A program made the position numbers and the translations under genes. Positions 33,131-64,000 of a stretch of 64,000 bases of DNA are shown piece after piece (positions within the stretch are counted from its first letter, which is position 1; each line of letters starts with the position of its first letter). Source of the stretch: Botryllus schlosseri (lineage: Eukaryota); NCBI GenBank assembly GCA_051294905.1, contig CM119371.1:62001-126000 (forward strand), given 5' to 3'. The notes under the pieces are model-generated. The model searched no databases, was not told where the DNA came from, and saw nothing but the letters and a program-made list of their open reading frames with translations.

Positions 33131-35174
33131 AATACATTATAACATTACCTACATCGGTGATTCTCAACCGCTGGTATAGGTCCGTGTCAAATTCCCTTGT
33201 CGGCCCGGATAATATATTCGAATTTTATATCGTAGCCTACTTGCAAATGCAAATTGATTTCCTGTCCACAGGTGAAATTGAACATAAATGTTTTCATTGA
33301 TTAATAAATTCGGATGGTATTTTTCCACACCTTGTTGTGATAACTTAACGTGCGCCACGATGCTGCAAGGGTTGTACCAGATTATTCAGAAGGAACCTAC
33401 AACTCGTTTAAGAGACCAGTTATGGAGATTTGTATGGAAGCTAGGAAGGCTTTTTCCTGGAAATTCTTTAATTTCAATCGTATAATTTAGCGATAAGTTG
33501 CACTTCTTTTAAAAGAAACTAAGCAGTCAAAATCCAGTTATATGCTTGTTCTATCAATTATAAAGAGGTCACATAGCTTATGACTTTTGTGAGAGTTTGC
33601 AAATGTACCCCTAGCAAACTAAATTTCTTGCCCACGTTTTCCGAAATATAACGCTAGCATACTTTGGAATATTCGACTTTGAAACGAAGTCATCATAGTC
33701 ATGAAATATAAAATGATTACTTCCTACAGTGGTTTGAAATATGGTGGATGACAAACGCCGCATGCGAATCAAATTAAATATACCTTTTCACCTTCCTTTC
33801 TGTAGTGTTCTCCCATCCCCGTTCTGATGCTCAGGTTTTACAAATGCAATGATAGACTTGAAAAGGGTAATTTGAGATGAGTAAATGAGTAAAACTAATG
33901 TGGCAGCGCGCTGTTAGCGGTAACGTCGAGATATCATCTATAAAAAATTACACAAAACAAATTTATTGTTAGAATATATTTTAGAATAAAATTTGACTTC
34001 GATGCAACCATCAGGGGTATTGCGACAGCAGCTCAACTGTCCGATTCCTCCGCCAATGTGTGGGTCAAACTCATTAGCTTCATTAGCCAACACCAAAGTG
34101 TCCTTTGCCAATTCTTTCAGAAGAGATAATTAGATATAATGTAGTTACAATTCGTCTTGGAGGCCGGCCTGGCGGGATGTTGCTGCGAGACAAGCTACGT
34201 ATTTTGAATTACAAGGATCTTTTGTCAAATAGATGTTGTGTGATGATCATCCAAAAATTGATATTAATATTCCTGTAACCGCTACATTCACAAAGTCTAC
34301 AATTTTAAAGCTCTTCTTGGTAGTTTACAGAGTTACTTTAAGCAAAATATAAGCTGTAACGCTACAGCGGTCGAATATCATTAGTTTTTATATCAGATTG
34401 GAATAATTATTATAAATAGTATTTTGCTTCATATGCCAGTTGCACAACTTTTTTTGTCTTAAATTAGATATTTACTAGGGTGGCAGAGTCTGATTCTCAC
34501 TTTGAGATTTGAACATAGACCTGTCAGTGAACGATTTTCGGCGTATGCAATCGATTTGACATCTTGAAAACTGCATCATTGTCATGGTTCCGGAAAAAAC
34601 TACCAAAGCATGAAATGTATGGAAAACAATTCCATACAATACTTGGAAAAATCCATACCATACCATATTCGCACATTTCCATATTCCATACCGACATTTT
34701 GTTGCAAACCATACCACACTTCCATACCACGCCCTGATTGTATATATAAATAAACCTACAGGCATCGTACCTCCACGCGCGACATTGACTGTAACAATAT
34801 ACTTGCTTGAGGACCTTGTTGACAGGTCACATTTAGATTGGAGAAATTTCCGCGCAGTTAACAATGTCGAGTACCAATGCACCTTGGAAAAGCAGCACAA
34901 CACGTGGTTTGTCAGAAAGTGTATTTCTAGTGTCACTAGGATCAACTGTATGAGTGGATTCGTCAACAAAATGAGAACGTGCATTTCTTCATCAATGTAA
35001 TGGCTTGATGTATCAATGGGTCTGACACAAATAATGACTGAGCCGCAAAAAACAACGACGTTATGACTTTTTTCTTATAGGTATGCGATATTCAAAAGCA
35101 CTGGTGACAACGATTCGAGAACTCTAATCTAGATTCTAAGAATACGAGAGTAGTTAAGTAGATCGGTCGTGACG

Positions 35175-35450
35175 GGCTATCGGGTTCTTATGGGCGGGGT
35201 GGCACGGTGCCGAGAAACCGGGGGTGGCACGGTGACCCTTATCTCTTATGGCGGGGGTGGCACGGTGCCATTGTGTCTTATGGCGGGGGTCGCATGGTTA
35301 CCTTTTCGGGTATACGCGCGGCGGCACGGTGCCGTGAAAACTCGTGGTGGTATGGTTACCTTTTCAGGTATAGGCGCGGTGACATGGTGACCTTTCAGGA
35401 GAGATGATTTGACTAACGTTGTGGGTATAGGCGCGGCGGCACGGTGTTGA
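35175..35450. repeat. GC-rich subterminal tandem repeats (~30 bp) of the outer element
   Basis: Repeated TTATGGCGGGGGTGGCACGGTG-like units just inside the terminus. Confidence 0.75.
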
Positions 35451-35946
35451 ATATGTATCAAGTAAATAGTCATGTGATTGGTCCTTAGGTAATGTGTATA
35501 TTCCAAATTACGGCGAGTACGACAATGATATATCGTTATTCTTATGGACGCGGCGATGATTCGTACTTTCGAGTATCTCTCGCATGGTGTTGAATATGTA
35601 CGAGTCACCAACAATAACCACGCGGACGGAAACGTGGCTTGTTGCGAGGATTAAGCAGTGCGACCTATATTTCGAATGACCTGTGCGGTGAATTGTTTCC
35701 CATGCAGCTGTGTGCTACTATCGCTTATTACACTATTCCATTCAGTGCGAAATAGTTTGATCGTAAATTATGATATATGATGTCGTAGTTTAGTCGTGTC
35801 AAATGACCGATCGTGTTCTCTTTCCTCGCTATTGATTGCTACCTGAATAATACTTTCGGCTTATTCGCTGTTTCACACCTACAGAATAGTCCACTGTTCA
35901 CAGTTGCAACAAGAATCACAAGTATACACATTTACACATTCGTTTA

Positions 35947-36317
35947 TTACTCTGAAATCAAACTCTTCACAAAAGCACGTACAATCGTATCATTCACTTT
36001 TTGATCATCGCCAAAATTATCCAAGTATTCCTCGGCTGAAAACCCTTGAGCTCTTTTTATCAAGAATGCAATAGCATGATCTCCACACACATCCGAAGTT
36101 TTACTCTGTAACTGTTTCCCAGTCACAGAAAATTCATCCGGCTCCAGGAATTCGATTATCTGAGGTTTTAGTGGTCCGAAGCCTAGTGAATCATGAAAAT
36201 GAGTATCGCCATCTCTGTATATACACACACCCAGCGAGACCCAGGCAAACTCGACTCGTCGTAATTAATGATGATAGCGAATTTTCCGTTAGTTGGTTTC
36301 TTCGGTATCTGGTCTAG
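35947..36317 (-). pseudogene. Adenain-type (Polinton/adintovirus) cysteine protease, 5'-truncated and frameshifted
   Basis: LDQIPKKPTNGKFAIIINYDESSLPGSRW / VCIYRDGDTHFHDSLGFGP...QLQSKTSDVCGDHAIAFL. Matches the N.D....G.HW...DS.G...Q.....CG pattern. The catalytic His position reads CGC (Arg) and there is a 2-nt frameshift in the GT run at ~36223-36230. Confidence 0.82.
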
Positions 36318-37788
36318 ATTTAATAATTAACGAATAACAGAACCGTCGCAGACGGTGATTCGAATACCGACAAATTCTCACTTATTTCTGATCCAACCCT
36401 AATCCTTTGCGAAGTGGATGCTTATTCAAAAACGTGTGAAATAATTGTAAAACCCTACGGTCGCTGACAGGATAATGCATCAGACATAGCGATCTAGTTA
36501 TAGTACGGTGTCGGAATCCATTCGCGAGATGTTCTAGAGGTAAATTGAGATAATCCGAAACCGAATATTTTGACTTTGGCGTAGTGTGAATTGAAATAGG
36601 ATTGACAAACATGACTACCAACTTTCCCACAGGCCCGTTTCGATATTATACACACATTGATTTGAAACAAGTAATGTAACATTGCAACTCTATTCACGGC
36701 CCCGCTTTCCGTTTGTCAAAGAGATATTTTAACATCTTACCATACTGAAAAGAATTATTCACAACAATAACAATTGTTAAAAATCTAGTTTTCACTTACT
36801 TGATTATATCACTACAACTCATAAATTTGAATTAATTCATCCTGGTTGTATTCGTATGATCGGTCTTTCTTTTTTTCATTCGATTGTAAAGCTCGTTACT
36901 ATTCTGAAGACAAAGTATTTACTAATCGGTGCATACACGATTCGACTTGAACATATTATATTTTGAGTATACGAGATTTGAATGTCTGAACAATAACTGA
37001 GAAATAATTTATCACAATTAAATCCGTAAAAGATATTTGAATGTCAGCAACTCGGTAAGGTCGTAGTTACTACCACATTACCTAATTTACCCGACCAACT
37101 CGTCATGATCATTCCCGAAATCAACACAAACATGACTACTGACTTGAGTCAACCACAAAACAGCATCAAGTTTTAAATCCGCTTGTAGCTTACGGCTTAT
37201 TTGAATGCGGGTTATGTTTTGTTGTAATTGAGTGTACGGAAATAGTATTACGCCTCGACATCTCACCATCTTGCCATCAACAAAAGAGTAAAATACACAA
37301 ACCTTGTCAAGTCAATCCGTTTGTAACTCACCGAACCAAAGCAAAAAGTGTCCATACGAAAAGTAGACAAGACTACGCAAGTAATCACTACAACCCACAA
37401 ACATATCAAGTTCGGTTTTAGCCATATACCACCAACTCGTCTTTTTTGTTCAACTGTAAAAGTCGTTACTATTTTTCAAGACAAAGTAATTACTACTCGA
37501 TAGATTTTGTAAGACAAAAGTAATTACTACTCGATGCAGACGCCTTGAGATTAACCTAACATGTTTGAGTATACAAGATTTGAAAGTCTGGCCATCGTAG
37601 TTGAGAATTCATTTCTTACAATCGAACGTAGGTGTTATATCGAAAATTACCAGGATTGTCACATCGATTTGACATATGGGGTTTTGTAATGGTCTATCAT
37701 GACTTGATTACTAATTTATTTGTGTTAATTAGACTCACCGATGTGGTGAAGGTTATTACGACAGCAACAAACTTTTCACTATCATGGC

Positions 37789-38467
37789 TATTAACATATT
37801 GAGTTGTAAAACTATACGTGTCTGAAATGTTCTTGATTGACAAATCATTCCACCTTGGTACAAATCACTCTGGGTATCGCGGATATCAGAAAATACTTTA
37901 CAAATGTAATCGTTTAAGTTACCAAGACATTAACATTATTATTAACATATTGAGTTGTAAAACTATACGTGTCTGAAGGGGAAGCGAGTGGCGCAGTTGG
38001 TTAAACACTGCGGTCACGACACCAATGGACGTGGGTTCGAATCACGGTTCTGACCCACTTCTACGTGTCGGAGGTTTCTCTGGGCTCCTCATCGCCGACC
38101 TCACTGCAACTGCAGTGCATTGAAAAGCCCAGACTGAAAGTGAGCCGTGCTACAAGTCGGCAGCAACGACCGCGATGGGAACGCTTGGGAGCGAGAGAGA
38201 ATGAAGAATGACTGCGAGAGAGATTGAAAGACGTTCCCAAGAATACTAAAAGCAAAGACCTCTGAACATTATGAAATTCGTGTCGTGGAGCACAAGGCCT
38301 AACCGGCGATAAGCTCCAACTGTGTTGTACCCATTAATACATACATACATACATACGTGTCTGAAATGTTCTTGATTGACAAATCATTCCACCTTGGTAC
38401 AAATCACTCTGGGTATCGCGGATATCAGAAAATACTTTACAAATGTAATCGTTTAAGTTACCAAGAC
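37789..38467 (+). repeat. ~140-bp tandem duplication, second copy interrupted by a SINE
   Basis: TATTAACATATTGAGTTGTAAAACTATACGTGTCTGAA...GTTACCAAGAC occurs at 37789-37928 and again at 37940-38467. Confidence 0.8.
37978..38352 (+). mobile_element. Full-length tRNA-derived SINE
   Basis: A box TGGCGCAGTTGG, B box GGTTCGAATCAC, (CATA)n tail, 13-bp TSD ATACGTGTCTGAA. Confidence 0.9.
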
Positions 38468-39516
38468 TAAAGATGAAACAACAATTCCGTTTGCTGGCTA
38501 ACAACCGGGTAATACTTTATTGTCAGAATCTGTGACGGTGAATTGAAACATACTCATCTTACGCAGTACGAGTAAATCACTTTGGACTCCGGGCGGCGTC
38601 GTTTAATCCGTGTTAAACTCTGTTCACACTCTCTGTCGAATGTGTGAAATGTAAAACATTACGAGGTTACACTCTAAGACTTTGATCAACAGAGAAACAA
38701 TTTTGAATATCTTTACTGGATGGATCCTATTCAACCGACCTTGGTTAATACAAAACTCATAACAATAATAAAATCGAAGTATGTGCTACACTGAAATCTA
38801 GAAAAATGTGTTTGTATTGTTGTTCATAGTAGTGATATCGATTTGAACCTGCGGAATAATTGTCATCATCTAACCAAACTAATGAAAGTCGTTGTCACAT
38901 TGTATGATGTTCACTGAATGCATACTAGTACTATTTGTGCAACACACACGAGCAGAGAAATTGGAAATTTTCCCATTGCCATTTGTCAAAGTAAATGTCG
39001 TCACAATACTCAGTCACTAAAAGACCATATACTTGTATGTGATTGAATCACCAACAATTAACTCGCTAAATCAAATCGTAAGGCAATTTCACGCACTCAG
39101 CGGATATTATACAACGTCGCTTTATCGGTGTGGGTCGTTTTTTCTAAATACAAATCATATCTGTCCAGTAGAAAACAATTTTCACTCACTTGGGTAACGA
39201 AACCAGTGTGCAATATCAACACAAGATATTTTCGTGACACAAAAAATAATCAACTTTACTCAATATTCTCGTAAAACGAAACTGTACAATGGTTTCATAT
39301 TTTTTGTATGACATGGAATTAATACCGATCGAAGTAGCCGCATTGGAAATGATTTTTAAACAAACACACTCTACGTGGTTAACATTCTCATCGATTCTAT
39401 TGTGACCAATGTATACTTCATGTGCTCTGGATTCATTTCGATATGGTTAAGCATTCAGCCTCGACAGTAGTTAAGTAGATCGGTCACGATTCGTACATTT
39501 TTGCATGGGGTAGTAT

Positions 39517-39760
39517 AGGCGGGGTCGCATGCTAACGCGAAAACCGGGGTGGCATGCTAACGTTTTCGTCTTATGGTGGGGTGGCATGCTAACGTTTTCG
39601 TCTTACGGCGGGGGTGGCATGCTAACGTTTTCGTCTTATGGCGGGGGTGACATGCTAACGTTTCGTCTTATGGGTGCGGTCGCATGATAACGCGAAACTC
39701 GTGGTGGCATGCTAATGTTTTTAGGTATACGTGCGGCGACATGCTAACGACGATAAATGT
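39517..39760. repeat. GC-rich subterminal tandem repeats (~32-33 bp), inner element left end
   Basis: GCATGCTAACGTTTTCGTCTTATGGCGGGGGTG units; mirrored at ~55270-55512. Confidence 0.85.
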
Positions 39761-40248
39761 GTCTGTCGTGTATTCTTACGGGATCTGTGGTGATTCACCA
39801 TGTGTTCTTATGGGTGCGGTCGTGATTCGCACTTTCAGACATCTCTCGCGTGGTGTTGAATATGTACGAGTCACCAACAATAACCGCGCAAACGGAAACG
39901 TGGTTTGTTGTGAGGATTACGCGTGCGACCTATATTTCGAATGACCTGTGCGCTGAATTATTTCTCGTCCAGCCGCTACTATCGATTATTACACTATGTC
40001 ATTCAGTGCGAAATAGTTTGCTAAATCTAGGAATCAGTCGCATGGTGTTACTTTAGTAATTAGTTTACCACAGAGCCGGCGTAGCCGGTGATTCGAATAC
40101 CGACAAATTTTCACTTATTTCTGACCCAACCCTAATCCTCTGTGAAGTCGACGCTTATTCAAAAAGGTGTGAAATAATTGTAAAATCCTAATCCGAAACC
40201 GCTTATTTCGACTTTGGCGCAGTGCGCATTGAAATAGGATTGACAAAC

Positions 40249-40560
40249 ATGACTACCAACTTCCCCACAGTCCCGTTTCGATATTATACACACATTGATT
40301 TGAAACAAGTAATGAAACATTACAACTCTATTCACGGTCTGGCTTTTCGTTTGTCAAAGAGATATTTTTACATCTTACCATACTCAAAAGAATTATTCAC
40401 AACATTACCAATTGTTAAAAATCTAGTATTCAATTACTTGATTATATCACTGCAACTCATGAATTTTAAATTAATTCATCCTGGTTGTATTCGTGAAAAC
40501 CAAAAATTTGTCACTAGCCCGCGATCGCTATATGTTTCACACCTCGCGAAAAGTGGCTGA
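40249..40560 (+). CDS. Hypothetical element ORF (103 aa, MTTNFPTVPFRYY...); mirror copy on the minus strand at 54468-54779
   Basis: Open in very AT-rich DNA, with CAAACATG start context; the outer-element homolog (36611-36850) shows synonymous changes plus stops. Confidence 0.4.
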   Translation: MTTNFPTVPFRYYTHIDLKQVMKHYNSIHGLAFRLSKRYFYILPYSKELFTTLPIVKNLVFNYLIISLQLMNFKLIHPGCIRENQKFVTSPRSLYVSHLAKSG

Positions 40561-43500
40561 CTTTAGTTGCGTGATAAGATCCATGAAAATATTCAATCGA
40601 TGTGTTAGTTTGTCAACTTGAAATGTAACTCACTACACAAATCAAGTTGAATCGTATTTGAATGTATTGATTCGACCCAACTCAAATCCTTTGACAAATC
40701 CTATTAACGCGATCTGTCGAATCGAGCGTAACCCGAATATTACTGACGCCGACTTTCAGCCACATTGAATTATTCGCACACCCACGCCGCTGTTTTCACA
40801 ACTATAACTCTACAAGAATCAAGAATCACAAGTACGTGCATTACACAGTTATTGTCTTCATCAACTTGAAATCAAACCCTTAACAAAAACACGCATCTTA
40901 TCACTTGTCAACTCTATCATGAAAATCCTCGAACCCGTATTATTAAGAATGTTATAGTACGGTATCGGAATCCATTCGCGAGAAAGGTGAATCCAAATAA
41001 TCCAGAATGAAATATTTGGACTTGACATAGTGTGAATAGAAATAGGTTTGACAAACATGACTACCAACTTTGATCCAGTCACATTTCAAGATTACACTTT
41101 GAAACAATCCTTGAAACTTACAACTGTATTCACGACTGAGTTTTCCATTTGTCAAATAGAGTTTCAGTAAATACTATCGCGATATTTTAATGTGTTACTA
41201 CACACAATAGAATCAATCAATGAAATAACACCTGTTGTAAATATTTCTAACTTGACAAACACTTGTACATACCGCGATCGACTTGTGACGCGATGAGTTA
41301 AATCGGAATATTTCAATCTATTTGTCGAAACCTTGAACAAACTATCGGGTTATTTTTTGTTGCAATCGAGTGAACGGAAATAGTATTACGTCTCAACATT
41401 TCAACATCTTCCCATACACAAAAGAGTAAAATACAAAAAAACCTTGTCAAGTCAATCCGTTTGTAACTTACCCAACCAAAACAAAAAGTATCCTTACGAA
41501 AAGTAGACAAGACTACGCAAGTAATCACTACAACCAACAAACATATCAAGTTCTGTTTTAGGCATATACCACCAACTCGTCTTATTGGAATGTCAGCAAC
41601 TCTTTACGGTCGTAGTTACAACCACGTAAACTAATTTACCCTACCCACACGTCATGATCATCCCTGAAATCAACACAAACTCGACTACTGACTTGAGTTA
41701 ACCACAAAAACGGCATCAAGTTTTTTAATCCACTTATAGCTGACAGATTATTCGAATACATCGATGGAGAATATTATTGAACTCGTCGGTATTGTTACTT
41801 CAACAAATTACACCGACTGCGAAAGTTAATATCGAATGGTAAGACTTGATCACATATTTGTTGAACACAGAAATGACAAAGAACATGATCGGAATTTTAT
41901 AAACTAGTCATATTACTTTTCACATCTATCAATATCAGAATACAAGTCATCAAACTTTTTGTTAAATGTAACATAGCACTTTTGGAATCGGATTCGTTAT
42001 AGTCGTACAAATTGTATTAAACACAACATCAAAACAAAAGGACTTTTTTAGTTTATTGAAATCAAATCATTCGTCTTCGACTTGTGCTTTTTTAGATTGC
42101 CAGCGACAATTCGTTTCGAGTGAGTTGTAACCAAAGTCAAGATATCTTTGTGTCCACAGATATGGAAGATGAATATAGCTAACACAATCACGAATCGACG
42201 TTTCAGATTATTTCACGGATGTAATAAACTTGTTAGTGTCACCTATCTAAAAGTACGCACGCGCTCGATTTCCATGCCGACTGTTGCGATGTTTAGGATT
42301 CACTTACAATAACCACGGATGAGGATTTAACATCAACGTCGTTACTGGTAGTATTCACAACAGAGAATCCAAACATTACACAGTGTGAAAATATATCTTT
42401 GATATCAAAGCATTATCCCAAGTATACGATTAATAGTCAACTCCGTTCACACTTTCTATAGAACGTGCTAAATGTAAAATATCACGAGGTTGCACTCTAA
42501 GACTTTGATCATTACAAAAAGTAAATTGGAATATGTTTGCTGGATGCATTCAATTCAGCTAGAAATGTCTAGTGCACAACAATCGTAATATCAAGGAAGT
42601 ACTTGCTATCACTAAACGTGTTTTGTATCGTTGTTCATTTGTAGTATTGATTGAAATTGTTTTTGAACACTCAAATAATAATTCCCGACATGAAACCAAG
42701 CCGCTGAAAGTCGTTACCATAACAAAGAAACAATTTGTACGATGTTTGGCAAATGTACCCTATAGTTAGGTGTACTAGAATTATTTGTGTAACACATACA
42801 CCGACAATGCAATCGAAATTTTTTCCGTTGTCATTCGCTAAAGTAAATGTCATCACAATACTCTGTCACTAAAAGACGTTACTCGGGCGTGCTTGAATTC
42901 TAGGCATAGTTCTGATTTACCCAACACAAGACCCAAGGACAACCCTAGTTTCAGTCGAACACAGATATCCAAAATATCGCACACTCCGCTATTCCTAAAG
43001 TACAAACACCCGATACAAAATATTACTTGTTGTGTTGTTGCGGTATCATCTTCACAATATCACCATTTTGTTTGTGTCAATTAGTTACTTTGTATGTTAC
43101 CCCACAACTCTTATAAAAGTACGAAGGATATTAACATCGCACTAAGTAATTAACTTTACTCGATATTCTCGCATTACGAAACTAAAGAATGGTTGGTTAG
43201 ACTCTACAAACTGTTTCGATATCACGAGACCTTTATTGTATCTTAATAATCAAATAGTTCAACACAGAACTAGTACTAACAGAAACACCAGAGTTGTTTA
43301 CACAAAAGTTTGTATATGTGCACAGTATGCGAATACCATGTGTAAGTCCAGCACAATTGCGGTATCCATCCGAGTTTAGTTAACACAAATTTATTACAAC
43401 GGAGTCACGTAAACTTTCGTGAAAGGAAAGCATACTCACTCCCAGAGGGTTATGTCAATGCCATAGCAGTTCCCCAACAACAAAGTACATATGTTTTCTA

Positions 43501-44404
43501 GTCACGGTCCTTACATCTTTCACATAGATCAATCTACTTTGCTAACGAAAAGTGCTAAGTCATCACATGATCGCTCTCACAACAAAACAGCTAGTAGATA
43601 TTATCATTCAAAATATTCCTAACCCTTTACATACCAGTAACAAATCATACAACGAATATGTTTTGTGGGTCGAATTGTTGTTCAGTGTCAAGTCTACCTG
43701 TTGAAACGTACATTAAAACAACACAGTCACAATCAAATTAAAACCACGAATCTATTTTCATTTCCTCGCAAACTGTCACATACAGAAAAATAAATTTAAT
43801 TTCCCAAAACATACTTGTAACCAATCGCTTTCATTAAACACACAACACCATAATAGTATTTACTTTCTACAACATAGACATTCCGGTGTAGTCAAGAAAT
43901 ATTTTTAATAATCAAAATCATCGACTTCTGTTTACGGTGTTAGTGTGTGCATGTCATACATGTGGGCCCGTATTAAAATGGACACGACAGGACTGACTGT
44001 AAGGAGATAGAAGTCTATCGCATAGATTTACATGTGGTCTTCGCTACGGTTTCAAAAAACGAATCATCTCTTTTGCATTGATCTAGACCGAGCAAGTTAG
44101 TTAATGACCATGATTGTGTTTGTCATATGCGAATGATAGGGTTACTGTCAAATCTACATACAACAATCTTCTGACGATCATAATAGCAATTTCATTTTCC
44201 GCCCCTTCATAATTGTACAACTCGGTAACTACGTTTAACAAGACCAATCACACTACCAGCGTTGAACACAAGATACCTACCCAAGTAAAAATATCATTCT
44301 GGTTTGGACAACTGACGTTTACCTGTGTAAAATTATCATTTTCACTTGGAGGTCCACCGTCACCTAACTAAAATACCATTGTCCTTTGGAGATTTATCGT
44401 TTAC

Positions 44405-44885
44405 CCAGTGTAACAATCCCCTTTTCACTTGGAAATATATTTTTGCCCTGGATAACAAACCCCTTTTCCCTTGGAAATCTATTTTTGTCCTGGATAACAA
44501 ACCTTTTTCACTTGGAAATATATTTTTTCTCTTGGTAACAAACCTTTTTCACTTGGAAATCTATTTTTGTCCTGGATAACAAACCTTTTTCACTTGGAAA
44601 TATATTTTTTCTCTTGGTAACAAACCTTTTTCACTTGGAAATATATTTTTTCTCTTGGTAACAAACCTTTTTCACTTGGAAATATATTTTTTTCTTGGTA
44701 ACAAACCTTTTTCACTTGGAAATATATTTTTTCTCTGGGTAACAAACCTTTTTCACTTGGAAATATATTTTTTCTCTGGGTAGCAAACCTTTTTCACTTG
44801 GAAATATATTTTTTCTCTGGGTAACAAACCTTTTTCACTTGGAAATATATTTTTTCCCTGAGCAACAAACCATTTTCACTTGGCG
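44405..44885. repeat. ~41-bp minisatellite in the inner left arm
   Basis: AACAAACCTTTTTCACTTGGAAATATATTTTTTCTCTTGGT units; the mirror array at ~47595-47950 has ~3 fewer units (122-bp offset). Confidence 0.9.
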
Positions 44886-46323: not shown

Positions 46324-46599
46324 ATGTCAATCCGTTTTACAATTTACCGTTTTTCAACTCCTCGCACCATACTGTTACGACACAGACAAGAAGCGTCGGT
46401 GGAAATGATAAAACACGGAAGGCACACTTTGGTGTTATTTGATATGGATTTTACACCAGACGAACCTCACATTCGAGCGATGCATTTGAATGGTGATTGT
46501 ATTATTGATGTCCAAGGAAAAGAAATGTATCGATTTATCGGTTTCGTACATATCCAACAAAAACCTGGGTATATGATTGTGCACGGTTCGCATATTTGA
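46324..46599 (+). CDS. Hypothetical 91-aa protein in the central spacer
   Basis: MSIRFTIYRFSTPRTILLRHRQEASVEMIKHGRH...VQGKEMYRFIGFVHIQQKPGYMIVHGSHI; the last 29 codons differ from the outer copy (60277-60366) only by 4 synonymous changes. Confidence 0.55.
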   Translation: MSIRFTIYRFSTPRTILLRHRQEASVEMIKHGRHTLVLFDMDFTPDEPHIRAMHLNGDCIIDVQGKEMYRFIGFVHIQQKPGYMIVHGSHI

Positions 46600-47594: not shown

Positions 47595-47950
47595 CAAGTG
47601 AAAATGGTTTGTTGCTCAGGGAAAAAATATATTTCCAAGTGAAAAAGGTTTGTTACCCAGAGAAAAAATATATTTCCAAGTGAAAAAGGTTTGCTACCCA
47701 GAGAAAAAATATATTTCCAAGTGAAAAAGGTTTGTTACCAAGAGAAAAAATATATTTCCAAGTGAAAAAGGTTTGTTATCCAGGACAAAAATAGATTTCC
47801 AAGTGAAAAAGGTTTGTTACCAAGAGAAAAAATATATTTCCAAGTGAAAAAGGTTTGTTATCCAGGACAAAAATAGATTTCCAAGGGAAAAGGGGTTTGT
47901 TATCCAGGGCAAAAATATATTTCCAAGTGAAAAGGGGATTGTTACACTGG
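47595..47950. repeat. ~41-bp minisatellite in the inner right arm
   Basis: Reverse complement of the 44405-44885 array. Confidence 0.88.
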
Positions 47951-52669: not shown

Positions 52670-55600
52670 GTGAATACTACCAGTAACGACGTTGATGTTA
52701 AATCCTCATCCGTGGTTATTGTAAGTGAATCCTAAACATCGCAACAGTCGGTATGGAAATCGAGCGCGTGCGTACTTTTAGATAGGTGACACTAACAAGT
52801 TTATTACATCCGTGAAATAATCTGAAACGTCGATTCGTGATTGTGTTAGCTATATTCATCTTCCATATCTGTGGACACAAAGATATCTTGACTTTGGTTA
52901 CAACTCACTCGAAACGAATTGTCGCGGGCAATCTAAAAAAGCACAAGTCGAAGACGAATGATTTGATTTCAATAAACTAAAAAAGTCCTTTTGTTTTGAT
53001 GTTGTGTTTAATACAATTTGTACGACTATAACGAATCCGATTCCAAATGTGCTATGTTACATTTAACAAAAAGTTTGATGACTTGTATTCTGATATTGAT
53101 AGATGTGAAAAGTAATATGACTAGTTTATAAAATTCCGATCATGTTCTTTGTCATGTCTGTGTTCAACAAATATGTGATCAAATCTTACCATTCGATATT
53201 AACTTTCGCAGTCGGTGTAATTTGTTGAAGTAACAATACCGACGAGTTCAATAATATTCTCCATCGATGTATTCGAATAATCTGTCAGCTATAAGTGGAT
53301 TAAAAAACTTGATGCCGTTTTTGTGGTTAACTCAAGTCAGTAGTCGAGTTTGTGTTGATTTCAGGGATGATCATGACGTGTGGGTAGGGTAAATTAGTTT
53401 ATGTGGTTGTAACTACGACCGTAAAGAGTTGCTGACATTCCAATAAGACGAGTTGGTGGTATATGCCTAAAACAGAACTTGATATGTTTGTTGGTTGTAG
53501 TGATTACTTGCGTAGTCTTGTCTACTTTTCGTAAGGATACTTTTTGTTTTGGTTGGGTAAGTTACAAACGGATTGACTTGACAAGGTTTTTTTGTATTTT
53601 ACTCTTTTGTGTATGGGAAGATGTTGAAATGTTGAGACGTAATACTATTTCCGTTCACTCGATTGCAACAAAAAATAACCCGATAGTTTGTTCAAGGTTT
53701 CGACAAATAGATTGAAATATTCCGATTTAACTCATCGCGTCACAAGTCGATCGCGGTATGTACAAGTGTTTGTCAAGTTAGAAATATTTACAACAGGTGT
53801 TATTTCATTGATTGATTCTATTGTGTGTAGTAACACATTAAAATATCGCGATAGTATTTACTGAAACTCTATTTGACAAATGGAAAACTCAGTCGTGAAT
53901 ACAGTTGTAAGTTTCAAGGATTGTTTCAAAGTGTAATCTTGAAATGTGACTGGATCAAATTTGGTAGTCATGTTTGTCAAACCTATTTCTATTCACACTA
54001 TGTCAAGTCCAAATATTTCATTCTGGATTATTTGGATTCACCTTTCTCGCGAATGGATTCCGATACCGTACTATAACATTCTTAATAATACGGGTTCGAG
54101 GATTTTCATGATAGAGTTGACAAGTGATAAGATGCGTGTTTTTGTTAAGGGTTTGATTTCAAGTTGATAAAGACAATAACTGTGTAATGCACGTACTTGT
54201 GATTCTTGATTCTTGTAGAGTTATAGTTGTGAAAACAGCGGCGTGGGTGTGCGAATAATTCAATGTGGCTGAAAGTCGGCGTCAGTAATATTCGGGTTAC
54301 GCTCGATTCGACAGATCGCGTTAATAGGATTTGTCAAAGGATTTGAGTTGGGTCGAATCAATACATTCAAATACGATTCAACTTGATTTGTGTAGTGAGT
54401 TACATTTCAAGTTGACAAACTAACACATCGATTGAATATTTTCATGGATCTTATCACGCAACGAAAGTCAGCCACTTTTCGCGAGGTGTGAAACATATAG
54501 CGATCGCGGGCTAGTGACAAATTTTTGGTTTTCACGAATACAACCAGGATGAATTAATTTAAAATTCATGAGTTGCAGTGATATAATCAAGTAATTGAAT
54601 ACTAGATTTTTAACAATTGGTAATGTTGTGAATAATTCTTTTGAGTATGGTAAGATGTAAAAATATCTCTTTGACAAACGAAAAGCCAGACCGTGAATAG
54701 AGTTGTAATGTTTCATTACTTGTTTCAAATCAATGTGTGTATAATATCGAAACGGGACTGTGGGGAAGTTGGTAGTCATGTTTGTCAATCCTATTTCAAT
54801 GCGCACTACGCCAAAGTCGAAATAAGCGGTTTCGGATTAGGATTTTACAATTATTTCACACCTTTTTGAATAAGCGTCGACTTCACAGAGGATTAGGGTT
54901 GGGTCAGAAATAAGTGAAAATTTGTCGGTATTCGAATCACCGGCTACGCCGGCTCTGTGGTAAACTAATTACTAAAGTAACACCATGCGACTGATTCTTA
55001 GATTTAGCAAACTATTTCGCACTGAATGACATAGTGTAATAATCGATAGTAGCGGCTGGACGAGAAATAATTCAGCGCACAGGTCATTCGAAATATAGGT
55101 CGCACGCGTAATCCTCACAACAAACCACGTTTCCGTTTGCGCGGTTATTGTTGGTGACTCGTACATATTCAACACCACGCGAGAGATGTCTGAAAGTGCG
55201 AATCTCGACCGCACCCATAAGAACACATGGTGAATCACCACAGATCCCGTAAGAATACACGACAGACACGTTTATCGTCGTTAGCATGTCGCCGCACGTA
55301 TACCTAAAAACATTAGCATGCCACCACGAGTTTCGCGTTATCATGCGACCGCACCCATAAGACGAAACGTTAGCATGTCACCCCCGCCATAAGACGAAAA
55401 CGTTAGCATGCCACCCCCGCCGTAAGACGAAAACGTTAGCATGCCACCCCGCCATAAGACGAAAACGTTAGCATGCCACCCCCGGTTTTCGCGTTACCAT
55501 GCGACCCCGCCTATACTACCCCATGCAAAAATGTACGAATCGCGACCGATCTACTTAACTATTCTCGACAGATACGAATTGTCACACACTCAACTAATAT

Positions 55601-57039
55601 CATACCAAATAGTTATATACAACAACCAAGACACAGAAAATTTGTTTTGGCCGTTTCGATTTTACTACTGGAGGTACTCATCACTTCGCTTAATACAATC
55701 TAGATTTAAACCCCATCGAACCTTTGGTGTCTATCGTTTTGCTGGATACGAATTATGTTAGTCTAACAGTAAACAATTTTCACAATCTTGGGTTATGAAT
55801 TCAATGTGTTGGCGGTCGTTCATTATTTTGTTTGTATCAACTAGTTACTTTGTAGGGTATGAATGAGCACCCTCCCACAACTCTTACAAAAGTACGAAGG
55901 ATATTTACATCACACAAGTAGTCGACTTTACTTCATATCCTCACACTACGAAACCAAATGGTTGTTTAGACTCTACAAACTTTTTTACACGAATGGTCAC
56001 ACATCTAAATATTCAAATAATCCAACACACAACAATAATACTTACAGAAATATCATAGTTCTTGTAACAAAGGTGTTTATCGTAAGTCCTACACAGTCAT
56101 GATAACCGTCCGAGTTTGACTTTTAGAAAATATTATATCGATACATCTTTCAAAAACAAAACCGTGGTCACTGCTTGAGAGACCTGCCAATGATATCACA
56201 ATAATACAGTTACTTCCACAAAAAAAAAATATGTATTCGACTTACTTTCCACAAATCTAACACACAAAACAATTTACTTTGCTAGCGAAAAGTGCTGAGT
56301 CATCATATGATTGTCCTCACAACAATACAACTAAAACATACTATCATACAAAATGGTCGTTATAGTTTGCACCCCAACGATACATCGTAAAAGTAACAAG
56401 TTTCAAGAATCGAGTTATTGAAAAACGTGAAAGTGTTTCTCCTGTGTCAAGTCGTTATGTTGATGAAAGTGTATATTGTAATATCATGATCAATTTGCAT
56501 TCGTTGGTCACAAACTGTCACTACTCTAAATAATTATTTTTCACTCAAACACAACAGCATACTTGTCGCCATTCGTTTTCATCAAGCACGAGGTCAAGAA
56601 ACTTACTTACTACGACATGAATTGGTATTTTTATGTTGTGTAAATACGTAATAATTAATTTTAGTAACACTATATCAACATCATCGAGTTGTGCGAATAG
56701 ATTTTCATGTGGTCTTGCGGTTTTAATCGAAGCACACATCATGATCTAATGTAGAGTCGTCTCTATTGTATAGCAACTCGGTAATCGAAATGCATGCATT
56801 AACATTTAAACAGCGATCGTGTTTCGTCACGCGAAAAATATGTTCACTACCGCGATACTCTGCACAGGGCGTGCAAATCCTTTTCACACTCGTAATAGTA
56901 TACCAACGGCTACCGGCGACAACGTTTAACAATACCAACGACACTAAACATACGATACCTACCCAAGTAAAATTTCCATTTTCACCTGGAGGTCAGCCGT
57001 TACCTGACTAAAAATACCATTGTCCTTTGGAGATCTTTG

Positions 57040-57600
57040 GTTTACCTAGAGTGACAATACATTTCACTTGGCGATCTACCTTTTCCTACAGTAGCAATAA
57101 CCTTTCCGTTTGGAAATATATTTTTCCCTGAGTAGCAAACCATTTTCACTTGGCAATCTATATTTTCCCTGAGCAACAAACCATTTTCACTCGGCGATCC
57201 ATCGTTTACCTGATTAAAAATATCATTTTCCTTTGGAGATCTGACGTTTACCCAGAGTAAGAAACCATTTTCACTTGTAAATATATTTTTTCCTTGGCTA
57301 ACAAACCTTTTTTCACTTGGAAATATATTTTTTCCTTGGCTAACAAACCTTTTTCACTTGGAAATATATTTTTTCTCTGGTTAACAAACCTTTTTCACTT
57401 GGAAATATATTTTTTCTCTGGTTAACAAACCTTTTTCACTTGGAAATATATTTTTCCCTGGGTAACAAACCTTTTTTCCCTGAGCAACAAACCATTCTCA
57501 CTTGGTGGTCCGTCGTTTAGCCGAGTAAAAATATCATTTTCCTTTGGAGATCCGGCGTTTACCCAGTGTAACAAAACATTTTCACCTGGAAAAATACTTT
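57040..57600. repeat. ~41-bp minisatellite in the outer left arm
   Basis: Same unit as in the inner element; mirrored at ~61300-61860. Confidence 0.85.
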
Positions 57601-57609
57601 TACCTAGAG

Positions 57610-58897
57610 CAGTGGGTCCCAACGTGGGCGATATCGCCCCCCAGGGGGCGATTTGTCGGTCCTGGGGGGCGAAAATAGCCAAGGGGGCGATAGGGGGGCG
57701 AAAACGGACGAAGGGGGCGATTGGGGGGCGATGGCGCGTTGAAATGGCTATATTGGCGTCCATGGCCGTAACTGTCACACCCAAGCCCCCAATTGAGATG
57801 GGGGGCCCACAATTCTTTCGTGAATTAACATTAATTATAGAGTATTATTTTGGAAATTTAGGCAACTTTTTCAAAAAATTTTCGCGCTGCGCGCCATTTC
57901 GTGGACGCATATTTCTTGCCTATTGGATACCCTTCCTCCTAGAAATAATACGCATGAAGTATAGAAATGGGCATCTCGGCGTCAGCCATTATCACACCAT
58001 GACGCACCAAGACATATGAAGTTTCAGGCCATGTAACATGCGACTCCGAGAAAACCTTGGCGGAAAAAGACTGCCTTTATGCTGACCGACTTCGATATAT
58101 AGACATATATATTTAATTGTCCATAGGCGCCTAAATGGCTGGCGCCAAATGCTCCTGTTCTGTCCAATCAGAACCTCACAAATAAATGCCATACCGCAGA
58201 GAAAAATTAGTTACCAGTGCAGAAATGCCAGTTTGAAATCGAAATCGTGTGCGACTTTTAGTTTAGTACGTATGGGCGATTTGAATATCTTTTGACATAG
58301 CAGACTGGCCACGAAATGTCATGTCATATGTTCAATTATTATTTATGGGCCCTACATTTTCCAAGACACCTCACTCAGCTTTAACGGTAAATCTGAATAC
58401 ATGAGCAGAGAGAAGATAAAAAATTGACAGCAATATTTATGCAATTCCCGAGCATATTGACCGATTCAATCATGAATAATAGAAATTTTTCGCGCTTCGC
58501 GCGAATTAGGCCGACTAACTAAAGAGTCCAACAATTTGTGCTGAGAAGTAGCGGTAAAGAGGTATCGGGGGAGTTGGGTCTGCGGGGCGCAGAAGTTTGC
58601 TTTATAGCGCTATGGAGGGGGTCAAGACCAACGTATTGAGGGGGGCTGACGAAGTGCTGTTACGGTCCTTTGGGAATCAAGTCAGAGAAATCACCTTTTC
58701 TGTTAGTCAACTCACCAAAATTTAGCTGGAAAAGTGTAATTTCGAGGTCGAGCCGAAAAGTTGACCTTTTTTTCTTAGTCAACTCGCCGGTGATTTCAGT
58801 GTGTATGCCCATTTTTGTGTTCCCAATATTTGGGGGGCGATTATCGGTGTGGAGTTTGAAAAGGGGGCGATGAGTCGAAAAAGGTTGGGAACCACTG
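57610..58897 (-). mobile_element. Non-autonomous hAT (Charlie-like) element, copy 2
   Basis: TIR CAGTGGGTCCCAAC / GTTGGGAACCACTG; TSD ACCTAGAG; single-copy empty site in the right arm at ~61287; homolog of 7720-8991. Confidence 0.92.
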
Positions 58898-61299
58898 ACC
58901 TAGAGTAACTAATCATTTTCTCCTGGGTAACAATCCCTTTTCGTCTGGAAACTATCATTTAACTGAGTACCAATACCGTTTTCACTTGGAAATACATTTT
59001 TTCCCTGGGTAACAATACCATTTTCGTTTTGAAAACTGACAACCACGCCGGTCAATTTGATATTTTTGTATATTGTTACAACAAACAGTGACGGAAATAC
59101 ACACAGACAACCGGTTTCAGAGTATACCACATCGGTCGTATCACATCAATATCATCGGTTAACCACATACAACATGCTCTTGTACACTGAAATGCATGTT
59201 TTGGAAACTTGGACAATAGGCCTCAATAGTTCTGTGATGTCTGGGTTCGTGCTTTTGATTTTCCAGAGTCAAAATGTCTGAATAAAACACCTCCTCGACG
59301 ACGGTTGGTATGTGGATAACGGTGTTCGGAAAACGGTTGGATTTATGTCACCCATCGCGATAACAATTCCTGGTCGAGTTTTCCTCCGGCATGTTTGCTA
59401 TATTGTGTCTTTATTGGTCAATGTATGTCTCGACATTCAGTTTGAAATCGGAAATGATAAAGTATGTAACCGGATCCGGATATCAACTCTGAATCGATAA
59501 ACCAATGAACAATATTCAAAGTAAACATGTCACACCCTGTGTTTCCACGAAAAAAATACCATCCAGACATACGTCGCGCTTGTTTGCCCACACCAGTATA
59601 CGCGCAAATGGAGGTGTGTGACATTGCATGCAGTGTGTTGGTATACAAACATCGATCCACAGACATTATCATAGTCGGTAGTTTTGATGTAGATCGAATG
59701 TCACCCGATAACAATACCAATAAGCCACATTGCAATGACTCTGAGTCTGCGCTATTACATCGATATTTCGACACCGTTCACTGATTTATTCGATGGTGTT
59801 ATCGTGTTGTAACATTACAAGATAGTCATGACCCTATCTCCGGACAGACCACCCAGATCTATTGGATACATCGGTCAATATCCAGCGTGTTGTCGAGACC
59901 GAAGTTTTCTGCTGAGGCTACAGCGTTTGACCAATGTGAACTATCGAAGTACGGTGCTCGAAATGATTGCGATCAGTCTTTCACTAAATCACGATGCATG
60001 GATGTCGCTACTCCCACATAACGACTCCAGATAAATATCGCGAACAGTGATTCTGCAAATCTCGGACTGATACTGTGATCCAATAAGGTGTGTTTCTGTG
60101 AAGACTGCAATCGTACATCACAAATAGAACACTACCTCGTGATTTCACACACAATCATTAAACACGCCACCTTGAGGGTCCCATTCGTCCGGCCACATTT
60201 CGAAACGGTCATCGCCGCAAGAGATCGAGGTTGCGCTCGTCATATCGGTAACATTTTGAAACGACATCGTCACAAGGTCCAGGGAAAAGAAATGTATCGA
60301 TTTATCGGATTTGTACATATCCAACAAAAACCTGGGTATATGATTGTACACGGTTCGCATATTTGACTGTGATCACAATATTGGTATGTACTGTACATTT
60401 CACTTTCATCGCCGTGCGAATAACCCATGTTACGGTTCCGTGTTTGTGTGTCTGTATGTCATGCTTCAGATTGACTCAGAGTCATTGCAATGTGGCTTAT
60501 TGGTATTGTTATCGGGTGACATTCGATCTACATCAAAACTACCGACTATGATAATGTCTGTGGATCGATGTTTGTATACCAACACACTGCATGCAATGTC
60601 ACACACCTCCATTTGCGCGTATACTGGTGTGGGCAAACAAGCGCGACGTATGTCTGGATGGTATTTTTTCGTGGAAACACAGGGTGTGACATGTTTACTT
60701 ACTAGTTGATATCCGGATCCGGTTACATACTTTATCATTTCCGATTTCAAACTGAATGTCGAGACATACATTGACCAATAAAGACACAATATAGCAAACA
60801 TGCCGGAGGAAAACTCGACCAGGAATTGTTATCGCGATGGGTGACATAAATCCAACCGTTTTCCGAACACCGTTATCCACATACCAACCGTCGTCGAGGA
60901 GGTGTTTTATTCAGACATTTTGACTCTGGAAAATCCAAAGCACGAACCCAGACATCACAGAACTATTGAGGCCTATTGTCCAAGTTTCCAAAACATGCAT
61001 TTCAGTGTACAAGAGCATGTTGTATGTGGTTAACCGATGATATTGATGTGATACGACCGATGTGGTATACTCTGAAACCGGTTGTCTGTGTGTATTTCCG
61101 TCACTGTTTGTTGTAACAATATACAAAAATATCAAATTGACCGGCGTGGTTGTCAGTTTTCAAAACGAAAATGGTATTGTTACCCAGGGAAAAAATGTAT
61201 TTCCAAGTGAAAACGGTATTGGTACTCAGTTAAATGATAGTTTCCAGACGAAAAGGGATTGTTACCCAGGAGAAAATGATTAGTTACTCTAGGTAAAAG

Positions 61300-61860
61300 T
61301 ATTTTTCCAGGTGAAAATGTTTTGTTACACTGGGTAAACGCCGGATCTCCAAAGGAAAATGATATTTTTACTCGGCTAAACGACGGACCACCAAGTGAGA
61401 ATGGTTTGTTGCTCAGGGAAAAAAGGTTTGTTACCCAGGGAAAAATATATTTCCAAGTGAAAAAGGTTTGTTAACCAGAGAAAAAATATATTTCCAAGTG
61501 AAAAAGGTTTGTTAACCAGAGAAAAAATATATTTCCAAGTGAAAAAGGTTTGTTAGCCAAGGAAAAAATATATTTCCAAGTGAAAAAAGGTTTGTTAGCC
61601 AAGGAAAAAATATATTTACAAGTGAAAATGGTTTCTTACTCTGGGTAAACGTCAGATCTCCAAAGGAAAATGATATTTTTAATCAGGTAAACGATGGATC
61701 GCCGAGTGAAAATGGTTTGTTGCTCAGGGAAAATATAGATTGCCAAGTGAAAATGGTTTGCTACTCAGGGAAAAATATATTTCCAAACGGAAAGGTTATT
61801 GCTACTGTAGGAAAAGGTAGATCGCCAAGTGAAATGTATTGTCACTCTAGGTAAACCAAA
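61300..61860. repeat. ~41-bp minisatellite in the outer right arm
   Basis: Reverse complement of 57040-57600. Confidence 0.85.
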
Positions 61861-64000
61861 GATCTCCAAAGGACAATGGTATTTTTAGTCAGGTAACGGC
61901 TGACCTCCAGGTGAAAATGGAAATTTTACTTGGGTAGGTATCGTATGTTTAGTGTCGTTGGTATTGTTAAACGTTGTCGCCGGTAGCCGTTGGTATACTA
62001 TTACGAGTGTGAAAAGGATTTGCACGCCCTGTGCAGAGTATCGCGGTAGTGAACATATTTTTCGCGTGACGAAACACGATCGCTGTTTAAATGTTAATGC
62101 ATGCATTTCGATTACCGAGTTGCTATACAATAGAGACGACTCTACATTAGATCATGATGTGTGCTTCGATTAAAACCGCAAGACCACATGAAAATCTATT
62201 CGCACAACTCGATGATGTTGATATAGTGTTACTAAAATTAATTATTACGTATTTACACAACATAAAAATACCAATTCATGTCGTAGTAAGTAAGTTTCTT
62301 GACCTCGTGCTTGATGAAAACGAATGGCGACAAGTATGCTGTTGTGTTTGAGTGAAAAATAATTATTTAGAGTAGTGACAGTTTGTGACCAACGAATGCA
62401 AATTGATCATGATATTACAATATACACTTTCATCAACATAACGACTTGACACAGGAGAAACACTTTCACGTTTTTCAATAACTCGATTCTTGAAACTTGT
62501 TACTTTTACGATGTATCGTTGGGGTGCAAACTATAACGACCATTTTGTATGATAGTATGTTTTAGTTGTATTGTTGTGAGGACAATCATATGATGACTCA
62601 GCACTTTTCGCTAGCAAAGTAAATTGTTTTGTGTGTTAGATTTGTGGAAAGTAAGTCGAATACATATTTTTTTTTGTGGAAGTAACTGTATTATTGTGAT
62701 ATCATTGGCAGGTCTCTCAAGCAGTGACCATGGTTTTGTTTTTGAAAGATGTATCGATATAATATTTTCTAAAAGTCAAACTCGGACGGTTATCATGACT
62801 GTGTGGGACTTACGATAAACACCTTTGTTACAAGAACTATGATATTTCTGTAAGTATTATAGTTGTGTGTTGGATTATTTGAATATTTAGATGTGTGACC
62901 ATTCGTGTAAAAAAGTTTGTAGAGTCTAAACAACCATTTGGTTTCGTAGTGTAAGGATATGAAGTAAAGTCGACTACTTTGTGTGATGTAAATATCCTTC
63001 GTACTTTTGTAAGAGTTGTGGGAGGGTGCTCATTCATACCCTACAAAGTAACTAGTTGATACAAACAAAATAATGAATGACCGCCAACACATTGAATTCA
63101 TAACCCAAGATTGTGAAAATTGTTTACTGTTAGACTAACATAATTCGTATCCAGCAAAACGATAGACACCAAAGGTTCGATGGGGTTTAAATCTAGATTG
63201 TATTAAGCGAAGTGATGAGTACCTCCAGTAATAAAATCGAAACGGCCAAAACAAATTTTCTGTGTCTTGGTTGTTGTAAATAACTATTTGGTATGATATT
63301 AGTTGAGTGTGTGACAATTCGTATCTGTCGAGGCTGAATGCTTAACCATATCGAAATGAATCCAGAGCACATGAAGTATACATTGGTCACAATAGAATCG
63401 ATGAGAATGTTAACCACGTAGAGTGTGTTTGTTTAAAAATCATTTCCAATGCGGCTACTTCGATCGGTATTAATTCCATGTCATACAAAAAATATGAAAC
63501 CATTGTACAGTTTCGTTTTACGAGAATATTGAGTAAAGTTGATTATTTTTTGTGTCACGAAAATATCTTGTGTTGATATTGCACACTGGTTTCGTTACCC
63601 AAGTGAGTGAAAATTGTTTTCTACTGGACAGATATGATTTGTATTTAGAAAAAACGACCCACACCGATAAAGCGACGTTGTATAATATCCACTGAGTGCG
63701 TGAAATTGCCTTACGATTTGATTTAGCGAGTTAATTGTTGGTGATTCAATCACATACAAGTATATGGTCTTTTAGTGACTGAGTATTGTGACGACATTTA
63801 CTTTGACAAATGGCAATGGGAAAATTTCCAATTTCTCTGCTCGTGTGTGTTGCACAAATAGTACTAGTATGCATTCAGTGAACATCATACAAATTGACAA
63901 CGACTTTCATTAGTTTGGTTAGATGATGACAATTATTCCGCAGGTTCAAATCGATATCACTACTATGAACAACAATACAAACACATTTTTCTAGATTTCA

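Follow-up and report, generated by a model that had tools for sequence, protein, structure and literature searches.

Different transposon lineages may acquire the foldback structure independently, as they lose the transposase and their inverted ends lengthen, and most foldback elements are described as Mutator-like with target site duplications (TSDs) of 8–10 bp (excerpts of PMC4079207). For Galileo, 98–100% identity between the ends of a copy is reported, together with divergence among subfamilies, unequal tandem-repeat numbers in the two ends and recruitment of internal sequence into them (excerpts of PMC3573991). Here we describe a locus in a 64,000-nucleotide stretch of the genome of Botryllus schlosseri (positions 62,001 to 126,000 of contig CM119371.1, GenBank assembly GCA_051294905.1). 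This whole stretch is called the window below, and positions are counted from its first letter. In this animal genome, the locus very probably holds two DNA transposons of a single high-copy family, one nested in the other, that have a foldback structure and are non-coding. It has long been asked how the long inverted ends of foldback-type transposons remain identical within each copy although the copies themselves diverge. Arms of kilobase length that are more than 99% identical, with a unique spacer and with arm-to-arm gene conversion, are also found in sex-chromosome palindromes and plastid inverted repeats.

The two nested elements

Two palindromic elements lie within positions 35149–64000, the inner one sitting inside the outer one. 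The inner element spans 39466–55563 (16,098 bp) and lies entirely within the left arm of the outer element, which begins at 35149 and whose right arm is truncated at 64000, where the window ends. An earlier note on this DNA, made from the sequence alone, had given both palindromes the same axis. This was wrong: the loop centres are at ~46.24 kb in the inner element and ~60.11 kb in the outer element, and the inner element has inserted into the left arm of the outer one. This insertion and a further one of 1,288 bp have split the outer left arm into three pieces (Table 1). Minus later insertions, each copy measures 13–15 kb, with inverted arms of 6.2–7.2 kb and a unique loop of 0.7–0.9 kb. The inner element has arms of 6331 and 6210 bp and a loop of 884 bp, and the outer element has a left arm of ~7.2 kb and a loop of 725 bp. 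Long inverted arms that make up most of the element, with a unique middle domain between them, are a feature of the foldback class.

The first 3,643 bp of the outer left arm (35149–38791) have no partner inside the window, so this partner must lie beyond 64000. The length fits the earlier note, which had put the right end ~3.1–3.7 kb past the window. The adjoining stretch, 38792–39467, pairs with 64000–63325 at 99.6%. We predict that the outer right arm reaches to about 67.3–67.7 kb, ends with GACCGATCTACTTAACTACT and is followed by TACGAG. Its exact end depends on whether the right arm mirrors an insert resembling a short interspersed nuclear element (SINE) and a 115-bp duplication, both located in the left arm.

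The elements have the ends AGTAG...CTACT and a common 20-bp terminus, AGTAGTTAAGTAGATCGGTC. This terminus occurs at 35149 and 39466 on the plus strand and, with one mismatch, at 55544–55563 on the minus strand. No others were found in the window at up to three mismatches, and the chance expectation is 0 against these three occurrences. Behind the ends, Tandem Repeats Finder detected GC-rich repeats of ~32 bp (35219–35302, 39546–39692 and 55336–55484), and a motif scan counted GGGGTGGCA-type (GGTGGCA-type) units, with seven in the first ~300 bp of the outer end and eight in each inner end. A 41-bp minisatellite was detected with the same program in all visible arms (44410–44883, 47594–47945, 57110–57476 and 61420–61786). 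Tandem repeats within all visible arms, here of the 32-bp subterminal and the 41-bp type, are again a foldback-class feature. The loops and their surroundings are homologous in direct orientation (45071–46299 versus 59076–60277 at 89.7%; 46510–47406 versus 60277–61116 at 88.9%). The terminus, the subterminal GC repeats, the minisatellite and the homologous loop that the earlier note had ascribed to both elements were therefore all found, and the flank TACGAG is located at 35143–35148 as it had said. It had also remarked on the common orientation of the loops. Both are indeed direct, but this shows only that the two elements inserted in the same direction, which is a 1-in-2 event.

The inner element is a clean insertion with a 6-bp target duplication. 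CTCGAC is present on both sides of it (39460–39465 and 55564–55569), and the outer right arm reads cagcCTCGACagatac without interruption and with one copy of CTCGAC, which makes it a built-in empty site for this insertion. A joint from 39459 to 55564, which skips 16,104 bases (16,098 + 6), was seen in two contigs each of the DNA runs X1, X5 and X6 described below. We do not take this joint as an insertion polymorphism, because the outer right arm itself has the same uninterrupted site. It does confirm the boundaries of the inner element. Insertion as a unit, with a TSD and defined termini, is a further foldback-class feature of the inner copy; the outer copy was seen at its left end only.

The coding capacity of the elements was assessed with a Pfam scan of 271 stop-to-stop open reading frames (ORFs) of at least 42 aa, 140 of them across the window and 131 further ones inside the elements. 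The 183 ORFs inside the elements (52 of the 140 plus the 131) gave three noise-level matches only, to RING-finger, thymosin and DUF7499, all below the cut-offs. There was no polymerase, integrase or other gene in either copy among the scanned ORFs, and the lack of a transposase gene among in-element ORFs is also typical of the foldback class. An Rfam search gave no hit and ARAGORN found no tRNA. The largest loop ORF (46509–46958) had no homologue, and substitutions between the two loops showed no excess of synonymous changes. Because the elements encode nothing recognisable, they appear to be non-coding and would have been moved in trans.

A half-RING-like motif (C-x-H-x3-C-x2-C-x8-C-x2-C) was noted on the minus strand of both loops (46470–46775 and 60273–60458). 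Its Pfam matches to zf-C3HC4_3 (E = 0.003 and 0.0015) are below the cut-off, and its atlas look-alikes are small RING proteins at 0.85–0.90, which is a lead only. We rejected this motif as a gene because the first Cys pair is missing, two zinc ligands are lost in other copies and ~0.8 chance hits are expected among 271 ORFs; it is probably a chance match or a decayed relic. Two predicted proteins, P0046 (290 aa) and P0047 (247 aa), from ENA contigs of 1067 and 1906 bp, are read-throughs of the loops of other copies. They too were rejected as a loop gene, since they have W where the window copies mostly have TGA and are not ORFs under the standard code. They would have been called as genes with TGA read as W, on short contigs of eukaryotic repeat DNA, and they show only that further copies exist in public assemblies.

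To describe the family beyond the two copies, contigs from three DNA runs (X1, X5 and X6) of three studies were matched at 90% likeness or more to the 20-kb stretch 36500–56499. This gave 183,447 contigs in X1, 10,044 in X5 and 12,240 in X6, over half of which fit two places (105,164, 5,433 and 6,454, respectively). Summed depth in X5 was highest at the subterminal bins (39168–40501 and 54509–55842) and at the centre (45171–46504), and ~30 times lower in some mid-arm bins. In X6, outer-type blocks are connected to inner-type blocks by joints such as 37028 to 41583 and 38553 to 42374. We read these results as a very abundant mosaic family with a conserved core made of the ends and the centre. 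Three short ENA contigs encode translations 82–88% identical to the inner loop region. The earlier note had proposed a mobile palindromic family rather than a one-off inverted duplication, and the 6-bp TSD, the common terminus and the many related contigs in three DNA runs bear this out. No further fragments of the family were found in the window at 1–35142. The 20-bp terminus had no match in 2.9 million viral contigs or in metagenome contigs, and a 38-base loop motif had none in metagenome and prokaryote genome contigs. A literature search with the terminal motifs returned just an unrelated paper and a beetle construct in which a 13-mer matches by chance. None of the runs listed with these sequences is recorded as RNA. 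In an RNA run (X23, of which ~6% was read), depth in the arm bins was 0–1.6, which speaks neither for nor against silencing.

Concerted evolution of the arms

Within each element the two arms are nearly identical. Over 6209 aligned positions, the inner arms show 25 substitutions (99.60% identity), together with gaps of 1 bp and 122 bp, the latter corresponding to three minisatellite units. In the visible part of the outer arms there are 14 substitutions in 3527 positions (again 99.60%) and gaps of 1, 1, 27 and 1 bp. Two 8-bp gaps in the alignments of the arm pairs are the TSDs of the hAT-like insertions. Between the elements, homologous blocks are only 74–95% identical and are partly reordered, and 4150 of the 7215 bp of the inner left arm and loop have a detectable outer counterpart. 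The motif GGGCAGTAAGCCTTC is an example of such a difference. It was found at 45653 on the plus strand and 46810–46824 on the minus strand, with none elsewhere in the window when two mismatches are allowed.

To determine how differences are distributed among the arms, four blocks of all four arms were aligned, giving 1,042 ungapped columns. Of these, 924 were invariant, 109 grouped the arms by element, none grouped them by side, none were crossed and nine were singletons. A further 68 gap columns also grouped by element. Larger differences follow the same pattern. Near the centre, two element-specific 5-bp indels each have a mirror image in the other arm, and the same holds for an inner-specific block (43615–44264) and an outer-specific block (56355–56946), because both blocks lie in gapless arm pairs. 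We found no convincing case of a nested element with terminal inverted repeats (TIRs) and a TSD that is mirrored in both arms. These data show that the arms of each copy evolve in concert.

The junction between the right arm and the loop is homologous in the two elements. Because this junction is common to both, the palindromic layout is older than the split of the two lineages. Since the palindromic design is inherited, copying between the arms must take place in each lineage. The left junction differs. Here the inner palindrome is ~25 bp longer, as 45772–45796 is the reverse complement of 46681–46705 with two mismatches, and the outer element has 25 unrelated bp at the corresponding place; 18 X1 contigs have the outer-type sequence. 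Thus, one arm is repeatedly overwritten from the other and the boundary of the palindrome is movable.

Most of what the earlier note had said about the arms is in agreement with these results. It had described two diverged elements with near-identical arms in each, which is what the identities of 99.60% within and 74–95% between elements indicate. Its claim that the architecture is inherited and that the arms are re-copied from each other is supported by the mirrored changes and by the common right junction. It had also expected arms to pair by element, and had named clustering by side as the outcome that would speak against this; 109 sites group by element and 0 by side. It was right that GGGCAGTAAGCCTTC is in both inner arms and absent from the outer arms, but its coordinates for the motif were one base off.

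Embedded insertions and neighbouring sequence

Table 1. Positions of the two palindromic elements, their flanks and their insertions in the window.
Feature	Position	Strand	Details
Outer left flank TACGAG	35143–35148		Would be one half of a 6-bp TSD; partner beyond the window
Outer left arm, distal part	35149–39465	+	Terminus 35149–35168; 7 subterminal GGTGGCACGG-type motifs at 35198–35445; SINE-like insert 37977–38353
Inner TSD, left copy CTCGAC	39460–39465
Inner left arm	39466–45796	+	6331 bp; terminus 39466–39485; 8 subterminal GGTGGCATGC-type motifs; minisatellite, 11.5 copies, 44410–44883
Inner unique loop	45797–46680	+	884 bp; 46300–46509 (210 bp) missing in the outer loop
Inner right arm, loop-proximal	46681–50004	−	41-bp minisatellite, 8.5 copies, 47594–47945
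hAT-like non-autonomous insertion	50005–52669		2,665 bp; inner right arm only; TIR begins CAAAGTCACTC; TSD GTGAATAC 49997–50004 / 52670–52677
Inner right arm, distal	52670–55563	−	Terminus 55544–55563 (AATAGTTAAG..., 1 mismatch)
Inner TSD, right copy CTCGAC	55564–55569
Outer left arm, middle	55570–57609	+	41-bp minisatellite 57110–57476; pairs with 63332–61287 at 99.56%
hAT-like insertion	57610–58897		1,288 bp; outer left arm only; TIR begins CAGTGGGTCCC; TSD ACCTAGAG 57602–57609 / 58898–58905
Outer left arm, loop-proximal	58898–59747	+	Pairs with 61294–60473 at 96.6% counting a 27-bp indel
Outer unique loop	59748–60472	+	725 bp; homologous to the inner loop, same direction
Outer right arm	60473–64000	−	Truncated by the window end; uninterrupted target of the inner element at ~63325–63332

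Two of the insertions that are confined to one arm are hAT-like. Elements of the hAT superfamily make TSDs of 8 bp, and both insertions have 8-bp TSDs and TIRs, which start with CAAAG... in the inner and CAGTG... in the outer element. No transposase was found in either. The inner left arm is uninterrupted at the site that mirrors the 2,665-bp insertion. The inverted ends of this insertion are identical over at least 31 bases, and X23 RNA reads cover it at ~11–62 per bin on both strands, many without other difference; members of this hAT-like family are therefore transcribed. The 1,288-bp insertion has the ends CAGTGG...CCACTG, and a related inverted copy that is 81–88% identical lies at 7746–8975 in the integrin gene region described below.

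The SINE-like insert in the outer left arm appears to be tRNA-derived. It has A- and B-box-like motifs and an (ATAC)n tail, and ARAGORN called no tRNA in it. It is flanked by a perfect 115-bp direct duplication (37814–37928 and 38353–38467, 539 bp apart). Reads of X23 pile up at this insert with ~500 per strand, and 96% of them match only partly.

In the part of the window that precedes the elements, exon-like ORFs on the plus strand between 4565 and 20959 match, in order, two VWA domains, two FG-GAP domains and integrin alpha Ig-like domains 1 and 2, although both integrin Ig-like Pfam matches are slightly under the cut-offs. This order of predicted domains matches that of an I-domain integrin alpha gene with introns. 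Because of these integrin-alpha-like exon matches the window reads as animal DNA. A search with an integrin exon gave bacterial FG-GAP proteins only. A weak MAM match was seen at 387–719. There is also an unrelated pair of inverted repeats (14346–14626 and 28709–28995; ~285 bp, 82% identical), which are probably two copies of another small repeat.

Mobility, arm copying and comparison with known systems

We propose that an autonomous partner elsewhere, which would make 6-bp staggered cuts, moves the elements in trans, and that the subterminal GGGGTGGCA-type repeats are putative binding sites for the mobilising enzyme. The best candidate for the mover would be a Maverick/Polinton-type integrase. 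This suggestion draws only on the length of the TSD and on the ends of Polintons/Mavericks, which reportedly are AG...CT. The arms would be homogenised by templated copying within the molecule, in which one arm serves as the template for the other. Such copying may occur mainly during the synthesis that accompanies transposition or gap repair, by template switching or repair in a folded-back intermediate, and we consider the chances for and against this timing to be evenly balanced. Protein-primed panhandle replication is a special case of transposition-coupled copying.

Several observations weigh against this account of the locus. Just one complete TSD pair is available, that of the inner copy, since the outer right end is beyond the window. 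Across the 64 kb we saw neither an autonomous partner nor a polymerase or integrase, and the superfamily is inferred only. Neither contig counts nor summed depths give copy numbers; the summed depth in X5 varies ~30-fold among bins, and parts of the arms may be separate sub-repeats. The palindromic structure is shown for the two copies in the window. There are also two results on the arms themselves. Host and guest arms have diverged equally, with 0.40% substitutions in each pair (14/3527 versus 25/6209, Fisher p = 1.0), although the outer insertion must be older. In addition, relative to the 2,665-bp hAT-like insertion, the inner arms have 17 differences in 2885 bp on the side away from the loop and 8 in 3324 bp towards the loop (p = 0.043; compared in left-arm coordinates as 39466–42350 versus 42351–45796). 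Both results, together with the ~25-bp shift of the palindrome boundary between the elements, favour in-place arm-to-arm gene conversion between close inverted repeats, unrelated to mobility. Homogenisation only at transposition needs two closely timed insertions to explain the equal divergence, because this model predicts that the host has diverged at least as much as the guest. The equal divergence thus leans towards either an in-place equilibrium or closely timed insertions. The gradient in the inner arms weakly hints at in-place conversion that spreads from the centre, but it is possibly due to chance. There is no such gradient in the outer element, and with n = 2 the statistics are weak. 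Three large insertions confined to one arm persist, as does the 122-bp difference in minisatellite length between the inner arms, which is not what in-place conversion would lead one to expect. Where the elements differ by blocks of more than 500 bp, both arms show the difference, and short conversion tracts poorly transfer such blocks. These persisting heterologies and mirrored blocks lean towards occasional copying of whole arms. Taken together, the arm divergence, the gradient and the one-arm insertions do not decide between in-place and transposition-coupled homogenisation, and we regard purely in-place conversion as possible though on balance improbable.

Copying of whole arms is also what would be expected if the elements were self-replicating, Maverick/Polinton-like palindromic replicons. 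In these, the displaced single strand would snap back into a panhandle or hairpin and one arm would be re-synthesised from the other at each cycle of protein-primed strand-displacement replication, followed by insertion with an integrase. The mirrored blocks of more than 500 bp would result from this re-synthesis, the ends would agree with the AG...CT rule mentioned above and the 13–15 kb size and long inverted ends fit. The 6-bp TSD is the length quoted for Polintons/Mavericks (excerpts of PMC8969392 and PMC10045372). However, neither copy has a protein-primed polymerase, integrase, capsid or other gene among ORFs of at least 42 aa, the terminus occurs in none of 2.9 million viral contigs and a panhandle alone restores the ends but leaves internal mismatches. 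The same data are explained by gene conversion or repair-coupled template switching. The one-arm insertions and the 0.40% arm divergence indicate that there was no re-copying since integration, which every model allows. We therefore think it unlikely that the elements are such replicons. It is no more likely that they are snap-back (copy-back) defective genomes of an endogenous Maverick/Polinton-like element, each made of one genome end and a loop with the second arm re-synthesised in each cycle. In that case the helper's protein-primed polymerase would replicate the palindrome and the helper's integrase would insert it with a 6-bp duplication, and a molecule of the defective-interfering type would have turned into a high-copy transposon. 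A very unlikely explanation is that the two palindromes have separate origins in progenitors that were not palindromic and were locally duplicated in inverted orientation or repaired by fold-back, with arms that are alike only because each duplication is young. Arm identity is indeed high and about equal in both elements, and extension of inverted ends by recruitment of internal sequence is documented for Galileo (excerpts of PMC3573991). But the right arm/loop junction is at a homologous position and the loops are homologous. The terminus at both inner ends and the single 6-bp TSD around the whole palindrome mean that it was inserted as a unit. It is even harder to believe that the palindromes are an assembly artefact, for example from fold-back chimeric long reads. 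Long-read chimeras can make palindromes, and X1–X4 may be the source sample. Yet there are 25 and 14 sites at which the arms of a pair differ, the minisatellite is not equally long in the two inner arms, and each element has a unique loop of 0.7–0.9 kb that is homologous to the other. The sequences also occur in runs of other studies, and one element is nested in the other with a 6-bp TSD. The one-arm hAT-like insertions with perfect 8-bp TSDs, along with the arm differences, lead us to treat the structure as genomic and real.

The locus provides a very abundant family with exceptionally long arms (6–7 kb) and with a TSD whose length is at odds with the superfamilies that foldback elements have been assigned to. 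Host and guest form a natural, time-ordered pair in which the one-arm insertions serve as markers. The family could thus be used to separate in-place from transposition-coupled homogenisation and could reveal the enzyme that moves non-coding palindromes of 13–15 kb. Long, near-perfect palindromes are potential sources of fragility, inversions and hairpin RNA.

As a comparison, sex-chromosome palindromes and plastid inverted repeats, unlike the elements described here, are not mobile, have no TSD or defined termini and do not form a dispersed family. Closer likenesses are found among transposons. Drosophila FB, Tetris, sea-urchin TU and Chironomus TFB1 resemble the present elements in having inverted arms and a middle domain, tandem repeats, no ORF, a TSD and mosaic copies (excerpts of PMC4079207). 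The terminus of the present elements differs from those of foldback transposons, and their arms of 6–7 kb are mostly unique sequence rather than arrays of short repeats. In Galileo, the unequal repeat number and the growth of the ends are comparable to the three-unit minisatellite difference and the ~25-bp boundary shift seen here. However, the TSD of Galileo is 7 bp long, its ends reach up to ~1.2 kb and its complete copies encode a transposase (excerpts of PMC3573991), whereas we found 6 bp, 6–7 kb and no gene. Because their TSD is 6 bp, we excluded for the palindromes the Mutator/Foldback superfamily (8–10 bp; excerpts of PMC4079207), the P superfamily with Galileo (7–8 bp) and hAT. Two other groups share the length of 6 bp but were rejected on their termini. 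IS3EU/GingerRoot elements have TA..TA or occasionally TG..CA ends (excerpts of PMC10045372) and Ginger2 has TGTNR ends and prefers the AT-rich target RTATAY (excerpts of PMC2836005), as opposed to AGTAG...CTACT ends and the target CTCGAC at this locus.

Mavericks/Polintons and polinton-like viruses are similar to the present elements in their 6-bp TSD, long inverted ends and size class of 15–40 kb (excerpts of PMC8969392, PMC10045372 and PMC12220804). They differ in that by definition they encode a protein-primed family B polymerase and an rve integrase, usually with a capsid, ATPase and protease, none of which is present here, and in that the inverted ends here make up the whole element. A search of the literature on non-autonomous or derived Polintons/Mavericks gave, in the excerpts returned (including those of PMC5499653), no description of a non-coding palindromic form. 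The elements are at most candidate non-autonomous Maverick/Polinton derivatives. What we regard as new is judged apart from curated repeat libraries, and if the family is already listed there the locus is a well-documented example of it. Relative to known foldback transposons, the new features are the 6-bp TSD, the arms of 6–7 kb that are mostly non-repetitive and the non-coding size of 13–15 kb.

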